Assembly: GCA_000934665.2 (NCBI GenBank)
Contig: JYFJ02004344.1
Location: forward strand, 1 to 32,791
DNA from: Catajapyx aquilonaris
Lineage: Eukaryota
DNA: 32,791 bases
Reading direction: 5' to 3'
The position numbers and the translations under genes were made by a program. Below the pieces are notes generated by a model that saw only the letters and a list, made by a program, of their open reading frames with translations, searched no databases and was not told the DNA's origin. Below are positions 763 to 31,137 of the stretch, in pieces; positions within the stretch are counted from its first letter, which is position 1; every line of letters starts with the position of its first letter.

Positions 763-3700
763 CTTTTGGAGTGAGGCGACCCCTAGTCTTACCCTGGCAG
801 TTCGGGCCACAGAAGAAGCACTAGAACCCACAGAGTTGATGGACTCCTTGGAACCAGATCTCCTGATGAATCCTGATGGTCCACTCAAGGAACCACGAGG
901 TGTGTTACTCACCGAAGCTCCGGAGCCCTTGCGGCTCTGGCAGACAGATTTGGTCACCTTGGCCAGTGGTGCAAACAAACCAAAGTGTTCCTTGCATTCA
1001 AAATATCTGGTAAGAAGACAAGTACGCAAGATATTACTGTCTCATTTGCATTGCTTAGCAAATTGTTGCATGCACAGGAAACTCAAAGACATCTCATTTC
1101 ATGGAAGAACTACTGCCACTCACTCTTACACATGCCAAATATCATATGACAACTGGCATTAGCTCCTGATTCAGGTCAGGAAATCCAAACTGCAATATGT
1201 CTTGTAATAAGTTATATCAAGAGCTCTTGGTTATATCCCCAATAATGTTACTCTTAGCATGCACAAATATGATGTCAACTTCGGGTTCCTGCATCTCATG
1301 TACTAGTACATTATAAGTGTTCCAATTACTACTCTAATTGCAAACATTGTCATCAAGATTTTTAATAGGTGTACAAGAGGTGGCGAAGACAACACGATCT
1401 AGCCGCACATCCTACAAAAATTTACCTCTTTCCAGCAACTGAGCCGTCATTTTTTCCAACAGGTTCATCGAGTTCAACTCCAGCCCAATCTCCTACAGCA
1501 AAGGCAGTAATGCCCAAGTACCTCAGGACACCCTTCTTGCTACCTGCGGTGCTGCTAACAATCACCCGGTCCCCAATCTTCAGCTCCGAAACACCAGAGC
1601 CTTTTCGGCTTGCTATAATTGAAGCGAACACAGTGCAATTAGATATGCTATACTTAAATCTTTGAAGCAGGAAGGATATTAGTTTGAGAGGATAAGCGTT
1701 ACCAGGAGTCTTTCGCAAGGTAGAACTTTTGTCAGGATCTGTTGGGGAAGCACTAACACTCATCTCGCGCTTACGGGGCGATGCAGGGGTGCTGCCATTG
1801 GTCTGGCTGCCTTCTCCACTACCATGTTCTCCTGGTGTCCGAGGCAGAGGTGCCCTGGTGAGTTTGGTGAGGCGGGAAAATACACCATGTTTTGCAGTGC
1901 ATTGAAAGTACCGAATGCCACCAACAGAGCCGTCATTCTTACCTGAAGAAATTGCCACAAATTACACTTTATGCAAATTAAGGAATTGTAATTATTACAT
2001 TACACAGATATAGACTGAAATATTTAGTACTGCATGTCACAAGTGTGAATTAAGATAAATGCATATGTATTCCTACTCTGCATGATGCTAAGCAAGATTC
2101 CTACTCTTTAAAGTGATTGCACTTATGTTTCAATTTTTATTACCCAAGGGTTCATCCAAAACAATTCCGGCCCAATCTCCTGGTGCAAACTGCGTCTCTC
2201 CAATAAAGGCTATCATGCCTGGCTTTGTTCCTCCAACCCATACTTTATCACCTATTATGAAGCTGTCAGTGTCCTGTGTGAGGATGACACTTGCATCTGC
2301 AAATAGTGAAAATCAATTAATTAGTGGTATTTCCCACCAATACATACAACAGGTAATGAAGCATATGGATTATTAGATGCGGTGATGGAAGCTTTCTGCA
2401 GTTATCATACAGTATGTATACAGTGGCCAGCACATTAACAGAACTTACCAGAACCCCTCCGAATGCCAGCTTCACTGAGCCTTCGAGCCTGTTCCCACAG
2501 TGGGTCTGGAGGACTAAGGCTATCTAAGAGTACAAAAGGCACACAACACATTACAAACATGCAACATGCACATCACAACAACTCAGGAACATACAGTACT
2601 AAGTACATAAATCTTGCAACATAATAGAGTTCATGCCATGCTGAGAAAGTGCAGAAAATCAACTAAAATCAAATTTCAAGCACTACTGCTCTACCACAAA
2701 GTAAATTCCGAAAAAAAAAAAACAGTAAAGTTCTCAACCATTGTTCTGTACCTGGGTAACTGCATCAGTACAGAAAATTTCATAATGAATTATTCTATTA
2801 TCTGCACTGCTGATGATGTAAAGTGAGCCAGTGCAGTGAATACAAATCACTAATAAACTATGTAAGTGTTCTTCAGTATTATCCTGACTCATTAGCCACT
2901 TCACATAAGTTTACCAGAAGGTCACTGAATCAATACACTGGTAATCTCTTTTTCATAATTATTTTGCATTACATGCGGTAATTGTTTACAGAATGGCCCA
3001 CCAATGCAGGAAATCTCCAGCAAAATAATTGAGAACCTATTACACAAATTGCTATAAAGGATAGTAGTTCTGAGACGGAAAATTTCATGAATGGCCCAAA
3101 TTCTGCGTAGTAACAACTTATTTAATTAATTAATTACATTCAGAAGTGGGTCTCCTCCGATCCACACCTGTTACACCCAGTCATCCCAATTTGAATCGCC
3201 AATTACGCGCCTATTACCAAACCTTCGACCTTGGACGATAACCACCGCGAAGATACCCCAATATTACGCGGCAAGGTCAAGACCATGCGTAACGCACATG
3301 GGAAGGCCACGAAGGTATCCCCATCAAGGCCGCATACATTCCCCACCTACTTATGCCATTTTTTAAAAAAAAAAAAAAAAACTCCCCCTGCCAAGCCTAT
3401 ATCTCCGGAGACATAGACTCATCTCTTTCCCAGGACAATTACCACGTCACCCCCTTTCTCTCCCTCGACATTTGGCCCTGGCCCACATCCCAATTGCCCG
3501 AAAAAGGAACAGGCCATGCATCAGCCAAAAGGTGTTTACGGCCCGATTCACCTCACGGCTGTTCCGACCCTGTATTTATGCTAGATGTGGACGTTAGATT
3601 TATTTTGAAATGACAAAACAATCCGTATGGCGATGAATTGCAGGCTGTCCCCATCCATTCTTCCTGATCAGTGCAATTACGTCTAATCGACTGTTAATTC

Positions 3701-6700: not shown

Positions 6701-8918
6701 CAGACACCATGAGATAACACCCAACATTGGAAAAACTATTCACATTTTGCAATAACGCCACATAAAATAGCACATAAACAATAAAGACAGCAGAAGTATT
6801 AAGTCACGTTGACCTACACGGTGCCAAGAAACACACTGTTAGGTTTTCCCACATAAATCAAAATATGTTGCCTCATCATCCCTTCACCCTTCTGTGAAAC
6901 AAGTTTCTACAAAATTCCCAACTTGTTCACATGCTCATATCAGCAGAAAGACAAACGCAACATGATCTGAACAGTCACACTTGATCTGTTCCCCATCAAT
7001 CATCAACACAGAAGAAAATGTGCCGGTGGACCAAAAAAACCAAAAACGTGATTTCTCACTGCCCTCATGCACGTACAGGACAAGACTCAAAAAAGTACAC
7101 AAAAAGAAACTCACCTTGCCTGTGGACTTGAAAATGGGCCACGGGCATGACTAAGGGACCGCAACAAAGTGACTGTGAGGGGGGCACCCCACAGGTATTA
7201 AATCAAACCCTCAATCAAATGTGCAGTGCTCAAGATCCAGGCAGCTTCTCTCAGGAGGAGGTCCACCTGCCCAGATATTACCTTCTACCAATGTCCCCCA
7301 CCACCCCTACCTCACCTCACCTCACCTGGCCTCACCTTGCTTACTAAATTTGGGAGCGGGTGGAGTCAACCATTGACAAAACAAGGAGAAGAGAGAAAGG
7401 GGGGGATGTGATAAGTCAGCTTCTTTGGCTTCTTTTTTTTAAACGCTGAGGCCAAAGAGAGACGAGGGGGAGGAGCCTGGGAGGCCCAACACTACACCTG
7501 GACCAACCTACCTGTCCATCACTCATGCCCTCTTATGGACACACAGTGCCCAGTTGCGGCTTCAGCCGCATGAGATAGTGGCAGGTCAGGCCTTTGCAAA
7601 AATGGGGAGCTTTTGAGAGGAAATTTACAAGAAGGCGGGTTTCCCAGGAGCGTGCCTGCATTATTGTCTGCCCTTCTATGGGGGAAGGTTCAAGTATGGT
7701 GAGCGAAGCATGCAAATTATTTGCTTCGCATCAAGCTTGATTTTTCTGAATTACCCACATTGCCTTTTCTAGACGTGATTCATAGCTGCTGACTTTGCAC
7801 GATTACTGCAGAGGTTGGCTATCTTCACATGATTTGTCACTCGCAAGGTGTTTGTTTTCATGTGATTAGGGCTATCAAGTTCAATTTTAAGGTCACTTCT
7901 GACAGCACATCACTTCTGATAAAGATTAAANGGAGCGTGCCTGCATTATTGTCTGCCCTTCTATGGGGGAAGGTTCAAGTATGGTGAGCGAAGCATGCAA
8001 ATTATTTGCTTCGCATCAAGCTTGATTTTTCTGAATTACCCACATTGCCTTTTCTAGACGTGATTCATAGCTGCTGACTTTGCACGATTACTGCAGAGGT
8101 TGGCTATCTTTACATGATTTGTCACTCGCAAGGTGTTTGTTTTCATGTGATTAGGGCTATCAAGTTCAATTTTAAGGTCACTTCTGACAGCACATCACTT
8201 CTGATAAAGATTAAAAATGTATCATACTGGTCAAAAGATAAAGTACTGTCACTGGATAAGGTATTTGCATACAGCGTCAAGTCCATGTTTGTGTCACCCA
8301 ATTTCCATTTTTATATGACAGTCTGCCAACAGTATTTTGTTACCAATGATCACACTCAGGATCGCTTTTGCCTTGAACTGCCACAATTTTTAATGGAAGT
8401 TGTTCCCAATGATACAGTGAGGTGAAAAAGTGTCCTATATATTCTGGCACTGCTGAAATCCACATTTGAAATTAACAATATGCAACCTTCTCCAACTAAT
8501 ATTGCCCCAGTTGATGCTCGTGTCCTTAAATAATTTTTCTTTCATTTTTTTCATAGTAATGTTATGTAACACCTACTTTTAAATTGAATCTCTTGCCTTC
8601 CTGGCTGTTCTACATACATAGGAATGGTAGTATTGTTTTCAAAATAATACATCAAAAGCATACAAAACACATACAGCTACAACAACATAAAAAACTAGCC
8701 AATTCAGTCAAGCAGCTGTTGGTAGCCAGAAAAACAAATAATAATAATAGACAACGGTACTCACTTGCTTTGACCCCATATGACATAGAGAAGGATGCCT
8801 CACTCCCAGGGGGTGAAGTTGTTGTGCTGGAACAAGGTTTTGGGAGTCCACTTGGCCGGGCGATTTTACTGGGTGGCTTTAGGCCCGAGGGCTTCGGTGA
8901 AGAAGGTGCATCTGCCAT
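763..8918 (-). CDS. CLIP-190: CAP-Gly domain linker protein (CLIP-170/CLIP-190/restin homolog), 5' coding exons; gene continues past the left edge of the window
   Basis: Six exons with GT-AG boundaries and consistent phase: 8765-8918 ([24 protein letters not shown]), 2449-2523 ([24 protein letters not shown]), 2144-2296 ([26 protein letters not shown]...[11 protein letters not shown]), 1703-1942 ([22 protein letters not shown]), 1426-1612 (LKIGDRVIV...[21 protein letters not shown]), 763-1006 ([17 protein letters not shown]...). Two tandem CAP-Gly domains with GKNDG motifs followed by a Ser-rich linker match the CLIP-170 family. 351 codons lie in the window; the coiled coil would be downstream. 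Confidence 0.92.
3140..5940 (-). mobile_element. Heavily decayed non-LTR retrotransposon ORF2 (L1/Tx1-like) in a CLIP intron
   Basis: This stretch is richer in GC than the flanking intron. Degenerate motifs appear on the minus strand in LINE ORF2 order: GPFW (~5420, cf. G.G.WK after the endonuclease), PEGFDGL (~4690, cf. PG.DG), LVTLL (~4645), D*GLIT..CTFKI (~4590, cf. NWRPITLLN.DYKI), FFNNISH (~4455, cf. AFD.V.H), IKYLV (~3935, cf. KYLG) and [10 protein letters not shown] (~3160, cf. the C-terminal Cys/His motif). There are many stops and frameshifts, and I found no YxDD. Confidence 0.42.
5432..5503. repeat. 52-bp cassette of three GC-rich triloop hairpins flanked by a 10-bp direct repeat
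   Basis: TTCGTCTATA occurs at 5432-5441 and 5494-5503. The hairpins are CGCGCC-GCA-GGCGCG (5442-5456), GGGGC-GAA-GCCCC (5462-5474) and CTCGC-AAA-GCGAG (5481-5493). Confidence 0.8.
7115..7148 (-). CDS. Putative alternative first coding exon of the CLIP gene ([11 protein letters not shown])
   Basis: ATG at 7148 opens 11 codons plus 1 nt, ending in a perfect AAG|GTGAGT donor in phase 1, which matches the phase-1 acceptor of exon 2449-2523. Confidence 0.55.
7647..8215. repeat. 284-bp tandem duplication across a single-N gap (probable assembly or haplotype overlap)
   Basis: 7647-7930 is repeated at 7932-8215, separated by an N at 7931. I noticed one difference between the copies (ATCTTCACAT vs ATCTTTACAT). 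Confidence 0.9.
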
Positions 8919-15647: not shown

Positions 15648-17865
15648 CTAAGCTTGAATTTTCTTGGCTTCTCTCCTCTGCTTTGAAGCCTGTCGATCCA
15701 ATTCTTGTCGCTTGCTTGTAAGAAGTTGTGCTTCCCTCTGCGTACGCTTGGTCCCTCGCATTATGTTGCGGTAAAGTCGCTTCTGCTTCTTCTTGATCAT
15801 CATTACGCGCAGGCCCCGTGTCTCCCTGTCCTCCTGTGCCTTGATAGCCTCAGGGTTGTCTTTTTCAATCTCACCAGCTTTAACTGACATTTTGATTTTC
15901 TAAACAAAAAAAAATGAGACGGATTACATTCATTATCATCAGGTACTAAATGACATCATACCTTGACACTTGGCTGCTGTTTTCCGAATTTCCTTCGCCT
16001 CGGTGTCACTGTTGGTTGATCCTCATCCTCACTCTCTTCGCTTTCTTCATCTGGCTTGACTGAAAGGGACATTGCATTTAGCTTATTCACAACTCCTGAT
16101 TACATAATGCTGAAACACTTCTACTGCCCTATGTAAACAATATACGCAGGGTTGTGGAACGTTTTCCAGGAAATAAAAATTGGAGCAAGGAAAGGTCCCA
16201 TTGGCAACAAGTTGCTACTATGAAAAACTATCATATTACCAGTGCGTGCTCCTTTCTGGGTTTCCGCTTCCATCAAAGCCTTCCTTTCTGGTGGCACGTA
16301 AGTACCAGGCTTGTCCTCCACAAATGGCGATAAGTGTGGGGGAAGAACAGCCCCCATAAAGTAGTCCTCAACTGGAAGCAGCCTCCTCTCATTCAGGGAG
16401 TCAAACACCCACTGCGGCTGGATGTAGTATCTGGACATGAACTGCTTCTCCATTTTCTTCCTGTCAACTACTTGGTGTGTAATTGACTCATCCTCCTCAC
16501 CGTATGTGGCCCCCACAAATAAAGTCTTGTCCCAGCTGACTTCCCCTCCCAGCGCACGGATGCAGAATGTCAGGGGTTCTCGGGGTACCTCCCGGTTCAG
16601 GAAGAATTTCAGTCCAGAGAAGAGAGAGCGGAGACGCTTCAGGCTTTCCGCTTCTTTCCGGGTATCTTCCAGGTTATCGCCTTCAGGATTTGGAAATTCA
16701 TCCAGTTCTGGTTCCTCCTCTTCTTCAGACCTGTGTGCCTTACGAAGACTCTGGTTCAGAGCAGCCACCCGCTCTGTCATCAGCTCCTCTGCAGAGGCCA
16801 TCTCTTTCTCAGCATCCGAGTCTACAACAAAAATTAGACAATTGTTACTTTTCAGGTTGTCAATGCTGACAACTCGATGACGTTAGTTTCGAAATGTATT
16901 CCACGTTTCCGCACAATATGCTACAAAATGGAACATATTCTGAGACTTGAGGAAATTGTTATAGCACTCTGAAGTTGTAGCGTGTTTCACAAGAAAAAAA
17001 ACATCCCACAAAATTCTAGGTGCATTGCTGTTCATGCTTCTTTCATGGTTTCAAAGTATCCTTCCGATAAAAATAAAACAAATGATTGTTATAGCTAACC
17101 TGCACATCCATGTAACTTGGGTGGGTAGAACATGTTGAGCGTGTGATACAGCCTGAAGTTGACGAACCCAAGCAAAGTGTTGTAGAACTCAACAAAATGT
17201 GCCATCACCTTGAAGTCAACCTCAGCCGGGTGCTGTGGTTGAAACCCAAAATAATGTGGTACAATCCAAGTCACCTTCCGGCCTTTGATCTCTGCCTGGA
17301 AGTAGTACCCCTTGATGCTCACAAACACCTTTCTAAGTGCTCTTGTATCAATCACGTAGTGCATGAATTCAGATGTGAGTCGCCGGCAGAGGTGTGAGGT
17401 TCGAGGCGGGATCACACGCAGGGTTGGAAAGGTGGAAAACAGGGAGCACATGGTTAGGCAGTCATCCAGGTCACCAATGGCATGCATGAAGGTTGGATAC
17501 CGCTCCTTCACGATGTGATCTATGCTGAATTCCTGTCGGTTTTCCTGGATCCTCTTCATTTTTTCCATGTCGCCCCGGTTCTTGGCTTTGGCCTGCTTCC
17601 TCAAGTGGACCTTCAAATCTCTAAGCTTCCACAATACTGGCTCATGTATCAGGAACTGTATGTCCTTCTTGTAGTACAGGGTCTTCTTCTCCACCACCCC
17701 CTTCTGCGCCCGCTTCCATTTGCGAGGCTCCCTCGGGTACACCCCCTTCAGAATGCAGAGGTAACGGAAGGCCTTCAGGCTCAACTGCAGCTTGCGAACA
17801 GCCTGCTTGCGGGAGATGTACAGGGTGGCCTCCCCACGCTCGAACTGCTTCTTGCGCTTGCCCAT
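15648..17865 (-). CDS. PES1: Pescadillo homolog (PES1/Nop7; PeBoW complex, BRCT domain), 565 aa, 4 coding exons
   Basis: Exons 17100-17865, 16240-16821, 15962-16059 and 15648-15899, in phase. Motifs: [64 protein letters not shown], and the BRCT segment [18 protein letters not shown]...ITHQVVDR...[10 protein letters not shown], followed by LPPHLSPFV. Confidence 0.97.
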
Positions 17866-18894
17866 CCTGCTCTAGGCTATCCAACCACACTGGAAAACCA
17901 CAAGACTAATTACACAAATTTCTGCGTCAAAAAGAGGCTGTCCTATATGTGGGAACCTGAGGAAACCCCGAGGGGTTATAGTTGACCTCCCAGTGACTAG
18001 CCCCACCGGAAACCCTGCCATACCCAGGTTTCCACATGGTTGGAAACTGGCCAGCCCTAGTGTGGCTTATTACCAATCAGCCGTACCTCCGATGCAAACC
18101 TGGACAACACCCCACAAGCACGGACACGGGAGGAGCAGCGGTGCGACGGACAAACAACGTGGTCCCCTAGAAGCCTACTTGACGCATATTCGTCCGCCAG
18201 GTGGCACAACGATCGGCGAGGCAGGTGGCGCCATCTGTGCCTTCACCGCCACTTTCAAATCTTTTGCCCAAGTTTCTTCTTGTCTGTCAATAATGGTTCG
18301 GGCCCCAGGGTTATGCCAATTACACCGGACTGCCACAGACTGAGGGACCTGGCAAAGAAATATTCTTCGACACAATATGTGAAGGTCATATTGATTGATC
18401 GCTCAGGTGAAGCAGGTGTGCTTTTTAGCGTGTTTGCAAGATGGAAATGACAGACTCGATGTTCGTAATCAATGATGGTAAAGTGCATATTGAGGCGGTT
18501 GCGCAGTTCTGGCCTCGGGCGAGCAATAGTGGGGAACAGACCACACACCTGTGGGATATGTCGCATGTAAGAGGGTTGTTATTATGCCGTTCAATACTGC
18601 ATATGACGTTCTGCCGATTCTCGTGTAAGATTCATGCTCGTTGATATGCATTTCCCGAAAACATGTACACTGCAACCCGATTGAAAGAGACCTTCACTTG
18701 AATTTTTGTCTGGTATGTAGATAATGTAGGTGACCCTGCCTGAAACTGATACTTCGCTACCAGATAGCACACAGATTTCGGCTTACGCGATACGCGTACT
18801 CCGAAGATACGCACAAGATATTTTTACAAATAATAACAGATCTACTTACCCGATCTGGGAGCACAGTATATTAATGTGTCTCTAACAATAACAC

Positions 18895-22202: not shown

Positions 22203-22285
22203 TTGCTCTCATTTGGGAGCAGCCTTTTCATATGGAGGAGGATGTTGCTTGAGGACACTTAGCGTTTCGCTCTTCCGGGTTGAGG

Positions 22286-23371
22286 ATGGCTGCTCCGAAG
22301 ACCATTGTTGTGACCACCCTCTCGGGGATGGGTCCGATCATCAAGAGTCTGCCGGTGGCTGTCAACCTGAGGAGGGAGATGTCCCCAAGGCCCAGTCCAG
22401 CTGGAAGCAGCAGCAGTGGGAGCGACATGGATGAGTCTGGGGAGGTGGGGCAGCAGCCTGGGAGGAAGAGGCAGAGGCTGGACCACCTCAGCATGGAGGA
22501 GAAGATCATGAGGAGGAAGATGAAGAACAGGGTGGCCGCACAGACAGCCAGGGACAGGAAGAAGGCCAGGATGGAGGAGTTGGAGAGCGTCGTGCAGGAT
22601 ATGGAGGAAAAGGTGAGGGACTGTTACGTAATCATGCTTAGAAGGTGTGTAGGCAAAAAAAAAGAGATGGCAGGTAGGAAATGAAACCAATTAGCCCAAA
22701 CATGGCATCTTGGTCGTGGCACATTACAGTAGGTAGGGACAACTTGGTCATGTGCTTCCCTAATCAGTGGCGTATGTTACAGTATGCTGCATTGGAGGTT
22801 CAGAACATCTCGCTGATAGTGGAAAACCAGAAGCTGCAGGAGCAGAATGAAGAGCTCCGGCTGATGCTGGAAGAGAGGCTGGCGTTGGACGCTGCCGTGG
22901 AAGAAGTCAAAGTGGTGGTTGTCAAGGAGGAAGTGCAGTCTTCACCACCCCAACTGACCCACCCGACCCCTCCCTCGTCCCCTCCTTCCTCCCCTGCCAC
23001 CCACCCAGCTCGTGCCTGCGAATCCGTCGAGTCTGCCGCACTCGTTAGTGACCCTCTGCAGAAGGGACAGGATCGCCAGGTACAGCTGGAGGTGGCTGCC
23101 ACAACCCTGATGATGCTCCTCAGCCTCAGCTCCCTCTTCTGGACATGGACCTCAGTCATGACGACTGCCTCCAGATCCTTGAGCAGCTCTCACAGTCGCT
23201 GCTTGAGCATGATACCGAGCCTGGAGAGGTGAGTTTCGTTTAATATGGCCTGAGATTGATTACCCTCAGAGTGTGATGACTAATAAGCATTCTCTTTGCA
23301 GGGCTGTCAACAAGCTGAGGCATCAGTGGTGGGGTCCACACCAGAAGGGCTGGAACCCGCCGAACAACTAA
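22286..23371 (+). CDS. Xbp1: XBP1 unspliced form XBP1u (~280 aa)
   Basis: With the 23-nt intron retained, the frame reads ESAALVSDPLQKGQ, then the hydrophobic VAATTLMMLLSLSSLFWTWTSV, then across the 23229-23301 intron to LERAVNKLRHQWWGPHQKGWNPPNN and a TAA stop at 23369-23371. Confidence 0.9.
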
Positions 23372-23706
23372 ACACCCCAACTGTCACGTGTCCAAACACA
23401 CAATTGGTGTCCGTCCTAAAGCCCTCTTCCACTGTCAGCACTTCTTCACCTGTCAGCAAATGTGGTTCAGCCGTCAAGAGGCGCCGGCATGCTCTCACAG
23501 AGGAGGAACCAGCTGAATGCATCATCCTGGACGATGACTGCTCTTCAGTTGTGCCAGAGTCAACTTGGGTTGATGTGGACATGGCTCCAAGTTGCAGCCC
23601 CAGCTCTGACCTTGGTTACGATTCCTCGCTGGACTCTCCACCCAGCCTCATGGAAACACAGACCTGGAGCGACACATTCACCGATCTGTTCCCTGACCTA
23701 CTCTAA
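22286..23706 (+). CDS. Xbp1: X-box binding protein 1, IRE1-spliced form XBP1s (~384 aa bZIP transcription factor)
   Basis: Exons 22286-22612, 22783-23228 (minus the IRE1 intron 23036-23058) and 23302-23706. The bZIP reads RKRQRLDHLSMEEKIMRRKMKNRVAAQTARDRKKARMEELE. Removing 23 nt gives an open frame (ESAEGTGSPG...LQILEQLSQSLLEHDTEPGE|GCQQ...) that ends in the XBP1s-type tail SDLGYDSSLDSP...WSDTFTDLFPDLL. An alternative in-frame exon-2 start at 22768 is possible. Confidence 0.95.
23036..23058 (+). other. 23-nt unconventional (IRE1-cleaved) intron of XBP1 mRNA
   Basis: The 5' hairpin is CGAGT-CTG|CCGC-ACTCG and the 3' hairpin is CCCT-CTG|CAGA-AGGG; both have 7-nt loops matching CNG|CNGN. The intron is CCGCACTCGTTAGTGACCCTCTG. 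Confidence 0.95.
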
Positions 23707-24845
23707 AAAAAAGAACAAACTCCACAAGAATTGTTCAGTGCTGTCACAATGGTGCCCTAAGGTAAAATTCTGTACCTTAACTGTTTTGATATTGACATGT
23801 AGGCATGAAGTTCAAATGTAAACAACAATAGTTAGTCAGGGAAGTTTAGAATTTTTAAAAAGCAGTAGGCCTACACAGAGATACCTGCAATGATCTCGAG
23901 ATACCGAGTTTTACTTTGCGGCACCAATGCCACGTGTGACCATTTTGTATCTATGTAAATGTTAATTTTATTGAGGGCTGTATGTACACTTATTTGTGCC
24001 GAAATGGACATGTATTCAGATCTTTCAGCATCGAATGTCTTTTGCATAAATCCCTTGGCCTCCCATTTTCTTTCAGGTGACCAGTAATTACGCATCAGTA
24101 CCAGTTGGCTGTATGGGGTCAACTAAATAAGACCCAAATAGTGGAAAAGCTAAATGTACTGATATATTATCTACTGCTACAGAATGTTTCCCAGTAATGC
24201 AACATGTAGCACAGCTATATTGATTATTAGTAGCCAGTCTGGATCAATACCCCTTGACAGGCTGAAACATATGCCTCATATTCCAACACTCATATCCAAG
24301 TGGCTACAACATTAACCTTGAGATATGTTTAGGACACAGGGGGACAGGCCATTATACAAAGGCAAAGTGCTTGGCATGCATGACTATACAGTACGTGGGC
24401 AATTACTTGCTTCACCTTGAACCGGCCTTAATAAAAGTTGCATCAACCTATTCCATGCAGACTACTTGGGACTTGTGATTACATAAGTACAACTGAATGT
24501 CAATAACTGACACAGAATATTGTAAACGGTATGAGACTTTGACGACCACTGCACAAACTGATGAAATCAAGAATAAGAAAATAGGTAATTTATTGCATAA
24601 GGTATGAGCTGATAAGCCTCAAAAACTAGGATTTTGACAAAACGAGTAACGTAAATGTTACACAAACATTTAGCAGGCATATACAAAGTTGATTCAGGGA
24701 TAGGGATGATGACTATAACCTCTACCATATTATGCATTGATTTTGCAGTACTTTCAACAAATTAGTGAAAGCTTCAGTCACAACTTCTTCAAAAATGAGG
24801 GGAGGAAAAAACATGCCCAGCACACCTTGACAAAAACCATACATA

Positions 24846-25300
24846 CAGGGTGGTCGGTAAATGGTGCACAAGCTTCGGGTAGCGAGATTCCTTGTGAAAA
24901 ACCAGTATAGAGAAGTGAAGGTCCTATTGCTCAACGATGCCTGGTTTGGGCTCACGAGGCCTCCAAATCATGACGTCAAATCCGCCCGGGAAATTCAAAC
25001 ACTACCATATCACTACTGTCTGCGGTGCATTGCCAGGGGTTGGCAATGCCTGGCAACATCCCAGCCAGTTTATACAGTTCCATTGTTGGGTGGAAATGTG
25101 GGGGATATCAGCATGGCAACGCACCGCAGACAGTAGCGATACAGCAGTGTTTGAATTTCACAGGCAGATATGACGGCATGATTTGGCCTCGTGAGCCCTA
25201 ACCAGGCATTGTAGAGCAATAGGACCTTCACTTCCCTATACTGGTTTTTCACAAGGAATCTCGCTACCTGAAGCGTGTGGGTCACTTACCGACCACCTTG
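24846..25300. mobile_element. Tc1/mariner-type foldback MITE (455 bp)
   Basis: TA flanks at 24844-24845 and 25301-25302; ends CAGGGTGGTCGGTAA...TTACCGACCACCTTG. The imperfect inverted arms extend well over 100 bp (GTAGCGAGATTCCTTGTGAAAAACCAGTATAG / CTATACTGGTTTTTCACAAGGAATCTCGCTAC). Confidence 0.88.
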
Positions 25301-25531: not shown

Positions 25532-28500
25532 TCAGTTCTCATCGTAAAGTGGAGTTGCGTCTCCTGAAATTGAACTCTCCACCATGGACCTGGGACTGGT
25601 GTTGGTCCTTGGGGTGGATCGCAGGCTGTCCCTTCCAGAATTAGACATCTGGGAAGGCGTTCTTGGTGAACGATGATGATGAGACGGTAGCATGGGTGGC
25701 CCTCCTCCTCCTCTTGGTGGCGGCCGGTCATGGTCCACATACCCTCTACTAGATCCAGAGGAATGGTGATGGTGTGAGTGGTGGCCATCAAAACGGGGTG
25801 TCTTATCCCCATACTGCGGGGTCATGCCTGGCCTAAGGGTACAAATACACAGAAATAAGTGCAAGCCAAGTGCAGATGCCCCACTCTACGAATGATAACT
25901 CACCCGAATCTGGGTGTTCCTCTGGGAGTGCCCCAAGAACCAGATCCGCCAGCTGCAGATGAAGAAGGGTTGTTTGAGGGGGGATCTTGCTTTTGTCTAG
26001 ACCTGGCCCACATCTCAGCTGCTTTCTGCCAGTCAGTTCCCTCTTTCAACGAGTCTTGTGGAGGGGGCGGCCTGTGGGAACTGAATAGACCCAATTGATA
26101 AGGTTTGCATTTTTTTCCTACTCAGTTATGTACTACTTCAGTTTTTCAGTTCTAACATGTATCTTTAAAAAAAAAGCCAAATCCTTACAAAGTCAAGTAC
26201 TGGACCAAACAGTTGACTTTTCAAAATAAAAAAGGACGCCAAAGAGACTGCACCTGGAAGGTGTCTGGGGCTGCATGGGTGTTCTGTGTCCAGGTGTCCT
26301 GTGCCCTGGTGTTACCGATCCTGGGTGCAGGAAAGGCCCTCCTTGGTTCTGCTGGCTTCCTCCATGTTGTGACATGGCATGAGGGGGATGAGATGCATGG
26401 TGCGGAGGATGGTGGTGGGAGTGATGGTGGTGGGATGGAGTGTGCTGGTAGTTCCTCGGAGTCTGGTTGCCATGAGGAGTGTGGTAGGGGGTCATGAAGG
26501 GGGTCTGGCCAGACGGGGTGTATGGAGTATTGGCTGTGAATCCACCAAAGCCACCTCCTCCACTGCCGCCACCTCCGCCTCCTCCCCCACTTCCACCATA
26601 AGCAGGGGTGTGAGCATAGTGAGGAGTGTGGTTGGCCACCTGGGAGAGGCTGTGCAGCATATGTGATGGGATGTTCTGGGCCACCATATGGATTGTTTCT
26701 GGATTCATGTCTGGAACAAGAAAATTAATGAAATATTTGACCTGATCTCTACAAAATAATAAACTAAGTTGCAGCAGCGTCATAGGTCACTTTCCATTGT
26801 CATTTACCACTGCCTTGAAAATTGTCAGGACATCAGTCAATTTATATTGTTCCACTTTTAATGCACACACTACCATAGCATAGTGCTCATGAACAATTCA
26901 CTTACTGGCCAAGTTTAGACTTGGGGTGGTTGCTCCGCCCATGTAGGGTGTCCTGTTGCTCATGGCTCCCCTTGGGGTACTTGGTGTCCCTGGAACTGGG
27001 TCCCTAAAGTGTTCCTTGAACCATCGGAATAAAGAGCCCAGGGTCTCAAACATCTGCTGTCGGAAGCGGAAGCCATCCTGGGTCACGGTTATGTACTCAT
27101 GGCGACCTTTGTTGCGGGGCATGTATGATAGAATGAATTTGCCTGGGAACTCCTTAGAAGCTGAAAGAATGTAGTGAATCTTCCCAGAGTTCTTCTTCTT
27201 CTCTTCTTTCAGCATCTCCTCTGACTTCTCACGGTTGCCCCCTTCTGTGTCCTTATAGTACTTGAAGGCCAACAGATCACGCACATGGGCTGCCATTGGG
27301 TTCACATACCGGGCAATGATCTCATCCAGATCTTCAAATTCCTCACTCCCAATCCAGAGAGACTGTCCTAAACTGAATGCATTCTCCTTCCCTTCCTCGC
27401 GAACATCTATGTGCTGATATATTCCATCAGTCACTTTCCAGGTCACTGTCAGGTGGTCAGATCCCTGCAGAAAGTTGGAAACATTACAGCATTTTGAGGT
27501 TGTACAGTACATCATTTTACAAATATTGTATGATAACTTAATGGGCATGGAATCTATGCTACTTTCAACCTTCCTGCTTCATACATGTCAAATATGCCTG
27601 CTCTGAGATAGCCTATAAATAAATTGAAAATTATGGCAACTTCAAAATTTTAAGAATATATACTGTACTTCAAATGCAATGTTGCACAATATTCAATTAA
27701 TGATCATTTAACCCTGGAACCGTGACGTGCCTGAAAGTTACGGCAACCATAACATGGGGTCTTTTAGAACCCCACCCAAATTTTTATTTTTATTAATTTT
27801 TATATAATACTTTTCAATGTATTGACTATATCCAATCATTCTTTGAACAATGCCTAAAATGATCGCTAATTCAAAATAAGCATGCACTTCCTGTTATATA
27901 CTTTTTTAAATGGCAAAAGTTCATTGTAATTATCATTTTAATGCATTTTAATTCTTTTGGGGTCCTAAAAGACCCCACGTCACGGTTCCAGGGGTAATCT
28001 ACATGGAGGTACTATATCGCTCAAAAACATGAGAAGATTTTGCATTTGATTCAAGTGCAGACTGCACTTGCGTCAAATGCATATAGTACATAATACGTAA
28101 ACATGTCTTTGCATATTCATCTTTTCCTTTTGGTATCCTGTGATTGGTTTTAAAAAGTGTGAATGTGTTTGTATGGATCAATTCCTTGTCCACTACGAGA
28201 GGTCAAACTAGCATTTCCGACCATGATCAAGGTAACCTCCTATTTTAACCATATAAATAAAAATTTCAAGCCCATCACACTAATTACACAACAAAATGAA
28301 ACAAAAGCATCAAATCCAAGTCCATTTACCTTGCTTGAGGGCCTGACAATGACCTCGCCCTGGTCCATTTGTGTCATGAGCTTCTCAGCCTCTTTGAAAG
28401 AAATGTTGTGAAATGAAGGATGCACAATGACTCTCTTGATGTATGTTTGGCGCTGTTTGAGCTTGCGGGCATCCTCTTCTGACTTAGTGTGCTTCTCTTC

Positions 28501-31137
28501 CAGTTCGAAATCATAAAAAGGATCTTTAGATGGTCTCCACTCCCCATTTTTATCTGCTAAGTCTGAGCTCTTGGAGGTGCACTCCACAGAGAAGCGCTCC
28601 ACCTCAATCTTTGTCACGCGGCAGTGAATTGACTGGCCAGGCCGCACTCGATCCTCTGGATTTGTGACGTGCTTATCTGACAGGTTTTTAATAGGAATGA
28701 ACCCAGTGATTCCATTGTCTAACCGGACCCGTATCCCTGTGGCTTGTCCTGGGCATGATCCAGCATCAAAATGATTCCACACCTGGACACAAATAAAATG
28801 TCAGATTTGGTATTTAGGTGAAAAGCGATTATGCCAAACGGGATAGTAGTTGATGCAAAACTGGTATTATTTTGCAAATAGGTTTTCATAAGGTTAAGAA
28901 AAATTTGGGGAAAATTTGGCTTTAGCACAATTCTGGGTAAGTTGTAAGAATTATGATGTAAAATGCCAATAATTATCAGTGCAAACAATTTTTTTGGCAT
29001 AATTATGGTGGTGAAACACAAATCTTTCAACACAACCTTACCTCAGATAAGTCGGGAAAGTCATTCTTCAGGCAGAATGGGCACTGCCATAGGCCAGTCT
29101 CATCATTTCTTACTGGGTTAGCTTGATCTAATTGATCACCTTGGGGCTTCCTGTGTGTGATGGCTGCAGAAGAAAACGGAATGTTACATTCAGTCTGCCT
29201 TGCATTCGTCACACTTCAGTTGAAAAATCCTGGTGTACTCACTCATGACATTGGCAAGGACTAGCTTCCCAATGTAAAAAGTCTCAGGAGTCTCCTTTGT
29301 AAGCATGTTGAACAATTCCTCTGGGTTAACTGACTGGAATTGAGTCCTCAGGTCCTTGTAGCGATGGTTCAGTTCTGCCCTGATATCATACAGAGTGATG
29401 CTCTTGTTCCCAAAGCCCTGTCAAATAAAGGAACATCAGTTTCCATAGTTGGCATAAACAAAGCATTACTTGTGATGTGCAAGTTTTTAAAATGACTCTC
29501 ACTTGTCTCTCTAATTCCTCGGCAAAGGCATCTAGATCAAGGTCCTTCAAACGATCTGGAGCTTCTAAAATTTCTTCCAGAGCACCAGCAGGGTTGGCAT
29601 CTTCGTCGTCATATTCCAGAGCATCTACAGCCATTTTCCTGGCCCATTCATAGGTCTCTGGGTGAACCCTGGACCCATCCAGAACTTCCACATACGCCTC
29701 AGTGCTGCAAATTTTTAAAGCCTTTGTTAAACTTCCATAAGGAACAATTTTATCTAAATCAGACACAGCAGAACTAAGTCAATAAATTTTTTGAAGTCTG
29801 GAACTGAAGACAGTAAGGTTAGCTAACAAACTCCTCCTACCAGGACCTGACCCTTGATACCACTAGTAATCCATTTTACATGCAACATCCTGTACATAAA
29901 GGTGAGATTGAGAAGCAAGGAAAAATGAAGACACACAACACACCTGTCCCCAAGTGAATTAGTGTCAATCTTGATAAAACCAGCACAATTGATGAACACC
30001 TTAGGCCCCATGTGGCAAGCTGTGACCAATTGAGTCCTGTTTTCCAAGCGCTGGTTTGACTGCTTCAGTATCTGCAGGTTAAAAATAAATGTCAATAACT
30101 TCAACTCACCTCAACTCTTCAAATGCATAAAACCCTGATAAAATTCATTTCTGGGATCCAAAATATGGACCCTTTGTCTTAAGCAGTCTTAAGTGGGTTT
30201 GTAATGATCTGATACTCACCATTGCCCCGACACAGCTCCCCACTTTGTACTATGTAGCATTCAAATTACATATCTGACCTATTAAGTATTGAAATCTCTA
30301 TCCCCTGGGTCAGGGTATTGGTTTTACTTCCTCATATGTGGCTCTTGCCATCTCCAATTTGTCTAATCAGTATTTTACTGCTTAGGTATTTTACACCTGA
30401 TTCTGCTTTGCAGCTCTTTCCTTTATAACACAACTTGAGTACCTTCAGCAATGCTGCTGACTTCCTAGGTCCCAGACCACACACGAACTGCACTAGGTTG
30501 GCAGTGTAGGGGAAGTTGATGGCACGGTTGATATCCACGCCAACCTCATTGGTTCGGTTTACAAACTCCAGGTACAGGGCATCCAGAAGTTCTTCCTTTG
30601 GAATTTGCTCCTGGTATTGGTGGTACCGCATGCAAAGGATCTCATCATCGCTGGTACATAGTTGTGAGTACTCAATCAACGGATCTTGCATCATTCTGCC
30701 TAGGGAAACAGCTTGGCGAAGCAGCAGGGGGTAGTCCCGGAAGTCATTCTGTATAAAATAAAAGTTGCACTGTACCATACTATTATCCCATTAGGGGAGG
30801 CGGAGTGGTGCTGCGGTATGTATGGCTGTACAGGTCCTGGGTTCGATCACAACCCCGGCTTTCCCCCCTTCATCTCGTGCAGAGTTTGGGGTCATCTCTT
30901 GCTTCATCTTGGGTGGGATTTCCGCTAGACTAACCACCCGGGGAAGTTCACAAAATGACAAAAGGACCAACATTGCATTGCACCTTGCACACCCCCTCCC
31001 AGTAACCCTGCCCTCGGACCAGGGCGCATCGCAGAAAGGCTACATTTGTGCAATGCACACAGTATAATAATAAAGGTACGTGCGATATACTCAAGAGGGG
31101 TGAAAGCACTACACGGATAATAATAATAATAATAATA

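Follow-up and report, generated by a model that had tools for sequence, protein, structure and literature searches.

An XBP1 gene with a predicted 23-nt IRE1 splice switch on contig JYFJ02004344.1 of Catajapyx aquilonaris

The DNA analysed here, contig JYFJ02004344.1 of the Catajapyx aquilonaris assembly GCA_000934665.2 (32,791 nucleotides (nt); this whole stretch is called the window), carries on its + strand an XBP1 gene of three exons (22286-23706), the second of which contains two closely spaced hairpins resembling those that IRE1 cuts in XBP1 mRNA. An initial annotation, made from the letters of the sequence, had interpreted these hairpins as the IRE1 splice switch of XBP1. The analysis confirms that the twin-hairpin element is present and supports this interpretation: the gene is very probably an XBP1 orthologue with a complete, conserved and ordinary arthropod-type IRE1 splice switch. 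The coordinates of its parts are collected in Table 1.

The protein encoded by the first exon matches the Pfam families bZIP_1 (E 1.3e-7; 32 bits, cut-off 27.6) and bZIP_2 (E 4.7e-7; 30.2 bits, cut-off 22.3), and a protein search with it returned 1061 relatives at E<=0.001, of which 120 were listed; where these have a name in their source, it is X-box-binding protein 1 or XBP1 in nearly every case. It aligns over 99% of its length with proteins of a nemertean and of decapods, and its N-terminus (MAAPKTIVVTT...) is similar to those of decapods. The product of the unspliced mRNA, XBP1u, can be aligned with other XBP1u proteins from residue 35 or earlier up to residue 280 (E down to 3e-41), the alignment reaching the last residue with chelicerate, crustacean, nemertean and vertebrate forms; identity to the best relatives found is about 35-40%, and the protein database contains no close relative. 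As judged from these alignments and from a neighbouring Pescadillo exon (see below), the gene is the XBP1 orthologue of an arthropod-like animal. One public run contains the locus, as a transcript contig of 2349 nt that begins at 22266 and is 100% identical to the window. This contig skips exactly the two GT-AG introns, so that the gene is expressed and its conventional splice sites are confirmed; it keeps the 23 nt between the two predicted IRE1 cuts, and is the unspliced XBP1u form. No Pumilio-type UGUANAUA site occurs in 23707-24900.

In the 5' hairpin of the element, CGAGT (23028-23032) pairs with ACTCG (23040-23044) around the loop CTGCCGC (23033-23039); in the 3' hairpin, CCCT (23052-23055) pairs with AGGG (23063-23066) around the loop CTGCAGA (23056-23062). 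Both 7-nt loops match the consensus exactly, with C, G, C and G at loop positions 1, 3, 4 and 6, and if each is cut after its third base, the 23 nt from 23036 to 23058 are removed. The hairpins stand on a stem formed by the flanking exon sequences: GTGCCTG (23012-23018) pairs with CAGGTAC (23077-23083) over 7 base pairs (bp), one of them G-U, and ATCC (23022-23025) with GGAT (23070-23073) over a further 4 bp. The initial annotation had described two 7-nt loops on stems of 5 and 4 bp that bound 23 nt, together with the pairing of the exons, and on re-reading the letters all of its coordinates and counts proved exact. Its remark on PstI was equally correct: the site CTGCAG at 23056 (a second one lies at 22834) is lost on cutting but restored where the exons join; PstI digestion thus cannot separate the spliced from the unspliced form.

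Two such hairpins might in principle be a chance arrangement within coding sequence that has no function. The loop motifs taken without their stems are compatible with this, as a pair at 23-nt spacing is present once in the window against 0.20 expected, and at least once in 16 of 100 dinucleotide shuffles of the window; once stems are considered, however, any stem-bearing twin appears in only 3 of 300 dinucleotide-preserving shuffles. The window contains ten consensus-loop hairpins with a stem of at least 4 bp on its two strands, and exactly one twin among them at a spacing of 14-40 nt, which is the element at 23036-23058. The comparative data, set out in the following, already refute a chance origin: the element lies at the position homologous to the splice site of other XBP1 genes, it matches an Rfam family at E 2e-6, its exon-exon stem covaries, and the frame behind the intron is conserved. 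We accord a chance arrangement practically no probability.

The family in question is RF04247 (bZIP non-canonical Hac1/Xbp1 intron), whose model, from position 1 to 72, aligns exactly to 23012-23083 with 39.5 bits in a permissive scan of 22900-23200 (301 nt). The covariance search that the initial annotation had proposed thus returns a full-length match, though one below the gathering score of the family. When the same model was run on the contigs of 40 XBP1-like relatives, it produced 16 matches at E<=0.1, with scores of 29.5-37.3 bits, all of which the element in the window exceeds.

Relatives were obtained by scanning metagenome and metatranscriptome contigs with a pattern, which gave 307 confirmed loci; 80 XBP1-like mRNA loci of these were used. 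They were searched with a twin-hairpin scanner for the loop C.G..G. on stems of at least 3 bp, at a spacing of 17, 20, 23 or 26 nt. Twin hairpins were detected in 55 of the 80, with predicted introns of 23 nt (28 loci), 20 nt (19), 17 nt (6) and 26 nt (2), two of the six 17-nt loci having an alternative 23-nt reading. All 55 lengths equal 2 modulo 3; the intron has therefore changed its length by whole codons. Among the 25 loci in which the scanner found no twin, five have an RF04247 match, to 23-nt elements with an imperfect 5' stem. Near-identical pairs of a spliced and an unspliced contig do not occur among these 25 loci; their sole match at 90% identity or above, between L053 and L052, shows no deletion.

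These lengths bear on the question whether IRE1 might cut at other bonds, or use another 3' site, and thus release an intron of different length. The letters around the two cuts leave some room for this, since they repeat (TCTG|C) and six deletion registers, from 23032-23054 to 23037-23059, therefore yield an identical spliced product; reads alone cannot place the cuts, and aligners may put the 23-nt gap anywhere within this range. However, there is no further consensus hairpin at a distance of 14-40 nt, only lengths of 2 modulo 3 reach the conserved C-terminus, and 23 nt is both the commonest length among the relatives (28 of 55) and, according to the available part of a study of insect Xbp1 (PMC13027231), the usual one in insects. 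Cleavage at other bonds is thus extremely improbable, and the 23-nt intron at 23036-23058 is the one considered in the following.

The paired positions of the element are maintained by substitutions on both sides. An alignment of the window with 24 unique 23-nt relatives is gapless (25 rows, 80 columns) and was evaluated on a structure of 23 pairs: 80.2% of the cells are paired, a figure that drops to 36.5-42.6% if the 3' partners are shifted by one to three columns, and changes on both sides are seen in 22 of the 23 pairs overall. Neither the observed percentage of pairing nor the covariation score was reached in any of 500 shuffles. The pairs of the 5' hairpin stem are kept in 97.6% of the relatives' cells, in rows preselected for a stem of at least 3 bp; the pairing of the hairpin stems is thus partly built in, because the scanner selected for it. 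The exon-exon stem was not selected for, and it shows compensatory changes in 13 of its 14 aligned pairs, with 73% of cells paired. RNAalifold, run without a given structure, predicts the same three helices.

The element separates two reading frames (Table 1). The unspliced frame encodes XBP1u, which is 280 amino acids (aa) long, contains a hydrophobic region and carries WWGPHQKGWNP in its tail. Its Kyte-Doolittle hydropathy, averaged over 19 residues, peaks at 1.53 around residue 220, inside the hydrophobic region (residues 216-239). In the alignment this region matches a hydrophobic stretch present in other XBP1u proteins, and it ends 41 residues short of the C-terminus; the tail can be aligned to the C-terminal ends of XBP1u from Limulus, a spider (Uloborus), a mite, decapods (Penaeus), a nemertean (Tubulanus) and vertebrates. 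Among the relatives, the strict form of this tail, WWGPxQxxWNP, is found in only 21 of the 55 unspliced frames, with close variants in some others, and one group ends in a basic tail of the type ...LPLKKRSKDW...; some lineages may thus have replaced the pausing-type peptide.

Removal of the 23 nt in silico yields XBP1s, a protein of 384 aa ending in ...TWSDTFTDLFPDLL, of which the first 194 residues are common with XBP1u and the following 190 form an acidic, Ser/Pro-rich half. The splice site falls at the codon homologous to that of other XBP1u proteins (...ESAAL...), the window reading ESAAL-VSDPLQK where vertebrates have ESAALRLRVPLQQ; the window has one residue fewer, which is what an intron of 23 rather than 26 nt leads one to expect. 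Beyond the site, the shifted frame stays open across intron 2 (23229-23301) and carries the motif W..TF..LFP.L in its last 14 residues. When the predicted introns of the 55 relatives were removed and translation continued in the bZIP frame, the last 14 residues of 42 of them contained, like those of the window, an LFP motif, typically as W-E-E-S-F-x-E-L-F-P-x-L; in the unspliced frames it is found in none of the 55. The initial annotation had held that excision opens a frame to a canonical XBP1s C-terminus. The open frame is there; 'canonical' applies to a short terminal motif, because a database search with the last exon as a whole found no relative, and what is conserved in the spliced frame is, on the sequences compared, this motif and not a domain.

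Several results weigh against an intact splice switch and have to be set beside those above. The Rfam match, at 39.5 bits, lies 1.5 bits below the RF04247 gathering score of 41, which is why a scan of the whole window at the gathering threshold reported nothing; this score is, however, a database cut-off and not a biological feature. Of the 80 relatives, 20 show no element by either the scanner or Rfam. A protein database search with the last exon in the XBP1s frame gave 321 candidates, none of them at E<=0.01, and BLAST of the 190 post-junction residues against the relatives spliced in silico is weak, with a best E of 1.3e-4 in a tiny database and matches mostly confined to the extreme C-terminus. 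The transcript evidence, a single contig of one run, comprises only the unspliced form and includes no contig with the 23 nt removed; since contigs drop minor variants, it says nothing for or against IRE1 splicing. Lastly, the minimum-energy fold of the region is a rod in which UCUGC (23032-23036) pairs with GCAGA (23058-23062), and in which the two hairpins are thus not formed. The best fold with both hairpins enforced reaches -36.5 kcal/mol, which is 5.1 kcal/mol worse and accounts for about 0.05% of the ensemble, and this gap between rod and hairpins is larger than in 23 of 24 relatives, as computed on the 80-nt rows of the alignment (median of the relatives 1.2, maximum 6.4 kcal/mol).

The rod deserves closer consideration. 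The initial annotation had proposed to fold 23005-23090 with RNAfold, and the outcome is divided: the region is unusually stable (-41.6 kcal/mol, z -4.16, none of 200 shuffles being as stable), but its minimum-energy fold is not the one with twin hairpins. The exon-exon stem is common ground, nine of its eleven pairs having probabilities of 0.98-1.0 and the two that border the internal loop of about 0.5; upon it, the two splice-site regions pair with each other, because CUGCAG is palindromic. The energy model even inserts a C-G pair inside the 7-nt loops, and nearest-neighbour energies handle structured 7-nt loops poorly; we treat the gap as a curiosity of the palindromic CUGCAG. The spliced product, in turn, folds as a single hairpin of 63 nt (-33.1 kcal/mol), in which the restored CUGCAG is found in the context of a 4-nt loop and no longer of a 7-nt loop.

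A stable rod could mean that the hairpins are inherited but little used or unused in this lineage, the loops being masked and XBP1u the main or only product. This would fit the 5.1 kcal/mol by which the rod is favoured, its excess over nearly all relatives, and a transcript contig that is unspliced; yet both loops match the consensus exactly, and the post-splice frame, which would decay if unused, is open over 190 codons and keeps the conserved terminal motif. Moreover, it is the major form that a contig preserves, and in unstressed tissue most of the mRNA should be unspliced; the energies that favour the rod are those which are poor for structured 7-nt loops; and alternative folds are described for human XBP1 too, in the accessible part of PMC4687415. 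Disuse is thus very unlikely. The rod could also be part of the switch itself, in a model of three states: a masked rod that hides both loops, a bifurcated substrate, and a zipped product, with the opening of the rod, for example by a translating or paused ribosome, gating the access of IRE1. We consider such gating improbable.

Under the preferred reading, an ordinary IRE1 splice switch, the mRNA would be translated as XBP1u, with its bZIP domain, hydrophobic region and WWGPHQKGWNP tail, while 23012-23083 would fold into a bifurcated stem-loop recognised by IRE1, its loops CUG|CCGC and CUG|CAGA each presenting one cleavage site. Upon stress of the endoplasmic reticulum (ER), cuts by IRE1 behind G23035 and G23058 would release the 23-nt intron; the exons would then zip together and be joined by a ligase of the RtcB type, RtcB being the ligase of XBP1 exons. 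The resulting frame shift would give XBP1s, with an acidic, activation-type tail ending in ...TWSDTFTDLFPDLL. From established XBP1 knowledge we infer the cleavage, the ligation and the dependence on stress, as well as the membrane targeting and pausing of XBP1u, for the gene in the window.

Table 1. Parts of the XBP1 gene and of its predicted IRE1 splice element, in positions of the window.
Feature	Position	Strand	Evidence
XBP1 exon 1; ATG at 22286, 109 codons, bZIP basic region from ~22460	22286..22612	+	translation, Pfam, transcript contig 22266-22610/12
GT-AG intron 1, 170 nt	22613..22782	+	skipped by transcript contig; splice-site letters
XBP1 exon 2; leucine zipper, linker, IRE1 site, hydrophobic region of unspliced frame	22783..23228	+	translation, transcript contig
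Bifurcated stem-loop (exon-exon stem and two hairpins)	23012..23083	+	full-length match to Rfam RF04247, covariation in relatives
5' arm of exon-exon stem; GTGCCTG 23012-23018 and ATCC 23022-23025	23012..23025	+	pair probabilities, alignment of relatives
5' splice-site hairpin; loop CTGCCGC, predicted cut 23035/23036	23028..23044	+	5-bp stem
Predicted 23-nt unconventional intron	23036..23058	+	retained in the sole transcript contig available
3' splice-site hairpin; loop CTGCAGA, predicted cut 23058/23059	23052..23066	+	4-bp stem
3' arm of exon-exon stem; GGAT and CAGGTAC	23070..23083	+	pair probabilities, alignment of relatives
Hydrophobic region of unspliced frame, residues 216-239, TTLMMLLSLSSLFWTW...; lost after splicing	23101..23172	+	Kyte-Doolittle, alignment
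GT-AG intron 2, 73 nt	23229..23301	+	skipped by transcript contig, GT..AG ends
XBP1 exon 3, end of unspliced frame ...LRHQWWGPHQKGWNPPNN; stop TAA 23369-23371	23302..23371	+	translation, tail alignment
XBP1 exon 3, spliced (XBP1s) frame; 134 codons ending TWSDTFTDLFPDLL, stop TAA 23704-23706	23302..23706	+	translation, terminal motif

The XBP1 gene has several neighbours in the window. About 4.4 kb upstream of it, on the opposite strand and in divergent orientation, lies a Pescadillo gene (16124-17871, - strand), with a Pescadillo_N domain (E 8e-108) and a BRCT exon; its exon finds its best named relatives among springtails, at 66-70% identity, and insects, at about 60-66%. In human, XBP1 and PES1 lie close together too, on 22q12. 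An SPT6-type elongation factor, with SH2_2, S1, HHH_7, HHH_9 and YqgF domains, is encoded by exons at 26901-30790 (- strand), which probably extend to 32160, and an exon with two CAP-Gly stretches (E 3.4e-27) is found at 1425-1961 (- strand). The assembled sequence of the window has a single N, at 7931.

For annotation, the gene should be given two proteins, XBP1u of 280 aa and XBP1s of 384 aa, and the model of the latter should not be marked as containing a frameshift error. The remark in the initial annotation that gene predictors mishandle the spliced isoform fits the 120 relatives listed for the first exon, 27 of which are labelled 'LOW QUALITY PROTEIN' (NCBI); these 27 all have XBP1s-like lengths (376-451 aa), and the label is a trace of annotation pipelines that treat the IRE1 splice as a frameshift. 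Similarly, the RF04247 gathering score of 41 bits missed every XBP1-like element tested; invertebrate XBP1 sites will therefore go unnoticed in routine Rfam annotation, and the cut-off appears badly placed for such genes. The splice site would also provide a ready read-out of ER stress for the species.

Among known systems, the nearest are the Xbp1 genes of insects. As far as the available part of PMC13027231 describes them, most insects have an intron of 23 nt (17 nt in Lepidoptera and Coleoptera), and 23 nt is thus the length to be expected in an arthropod; in Diaphorina citri it has been confirmed by sequencing. The insect intron is flanked by two stem-loops with CNG'CNG loops, as is that of the window, and its removal likewise shifts translation, after the bZIP half, into a second reading frame. 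The D. citri gene is reported there with five exons, whereas that of the window has three, and its splicing has been sequenced, whereas that of the window is predicted from the DNA. For shrimp XBP1, a literature search yielded no primary paper on splicing.

The fold has its published counterpart in human XBP1, for which Peschek et al. 2015 (PMC4687415), in the part available, describe a bifurcated stem-loop with a central exon-exon stem (S1) and two arm hairpins (stems S2 and S3) that carry 7-mer loops; the predicted fold of the window is alike. In both, the consensus motif is present at both junctions, so that ligation restores it. After splicing, the human RNA folds into a single long stem whose loop, now smaller, contains the restored motif, as does the product predicted for the window, and the zipper and the resistance to renewed cleavage described for human XBP1 are matched by that predicted fold. 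The differences lie in the length of the intron, 23 nt in the window and 26 in human, and in the 5' loop, which in the window is CUGCCGC. At the protein level, human XBP1u has an HR2 region and a C-terminal arrest peptide, which serve membrane targeting and ribosome pausing (PMC11077094, available part), and Drosophila has retained both HR2 and the C-terminal pausing region, as stated in the accessible portion of PMC4138184. The XBP1u tail of the window, WWGPHQKGWNPPNN, aligns with other XBP1u tails and would correspond, by its sequence, to the human pausing region; it resembles the chelicerate and crustacean form (KWWGPHQKAWNPTKN-like) more than the vertebrate one.

Yeast HAC1 and plant bZIP60 follow the same logic, IRE1 cutting two loops and thereby switching the frame or the C-terminus. 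They belong to gene families that differ outside the bZIP core, and their unspliced tails differ from that of XBP1u. The HAC1 intron, at 252 nt, blocks translation, unlike that of the window; bZIP60, according to the available part of PMC11077094, also loses 23 nt. Seen against these systems, the 23-nt element is a textbook mechanism and not a new one: it is a further example of what is already on record from insects to mammals, and opens no new question.

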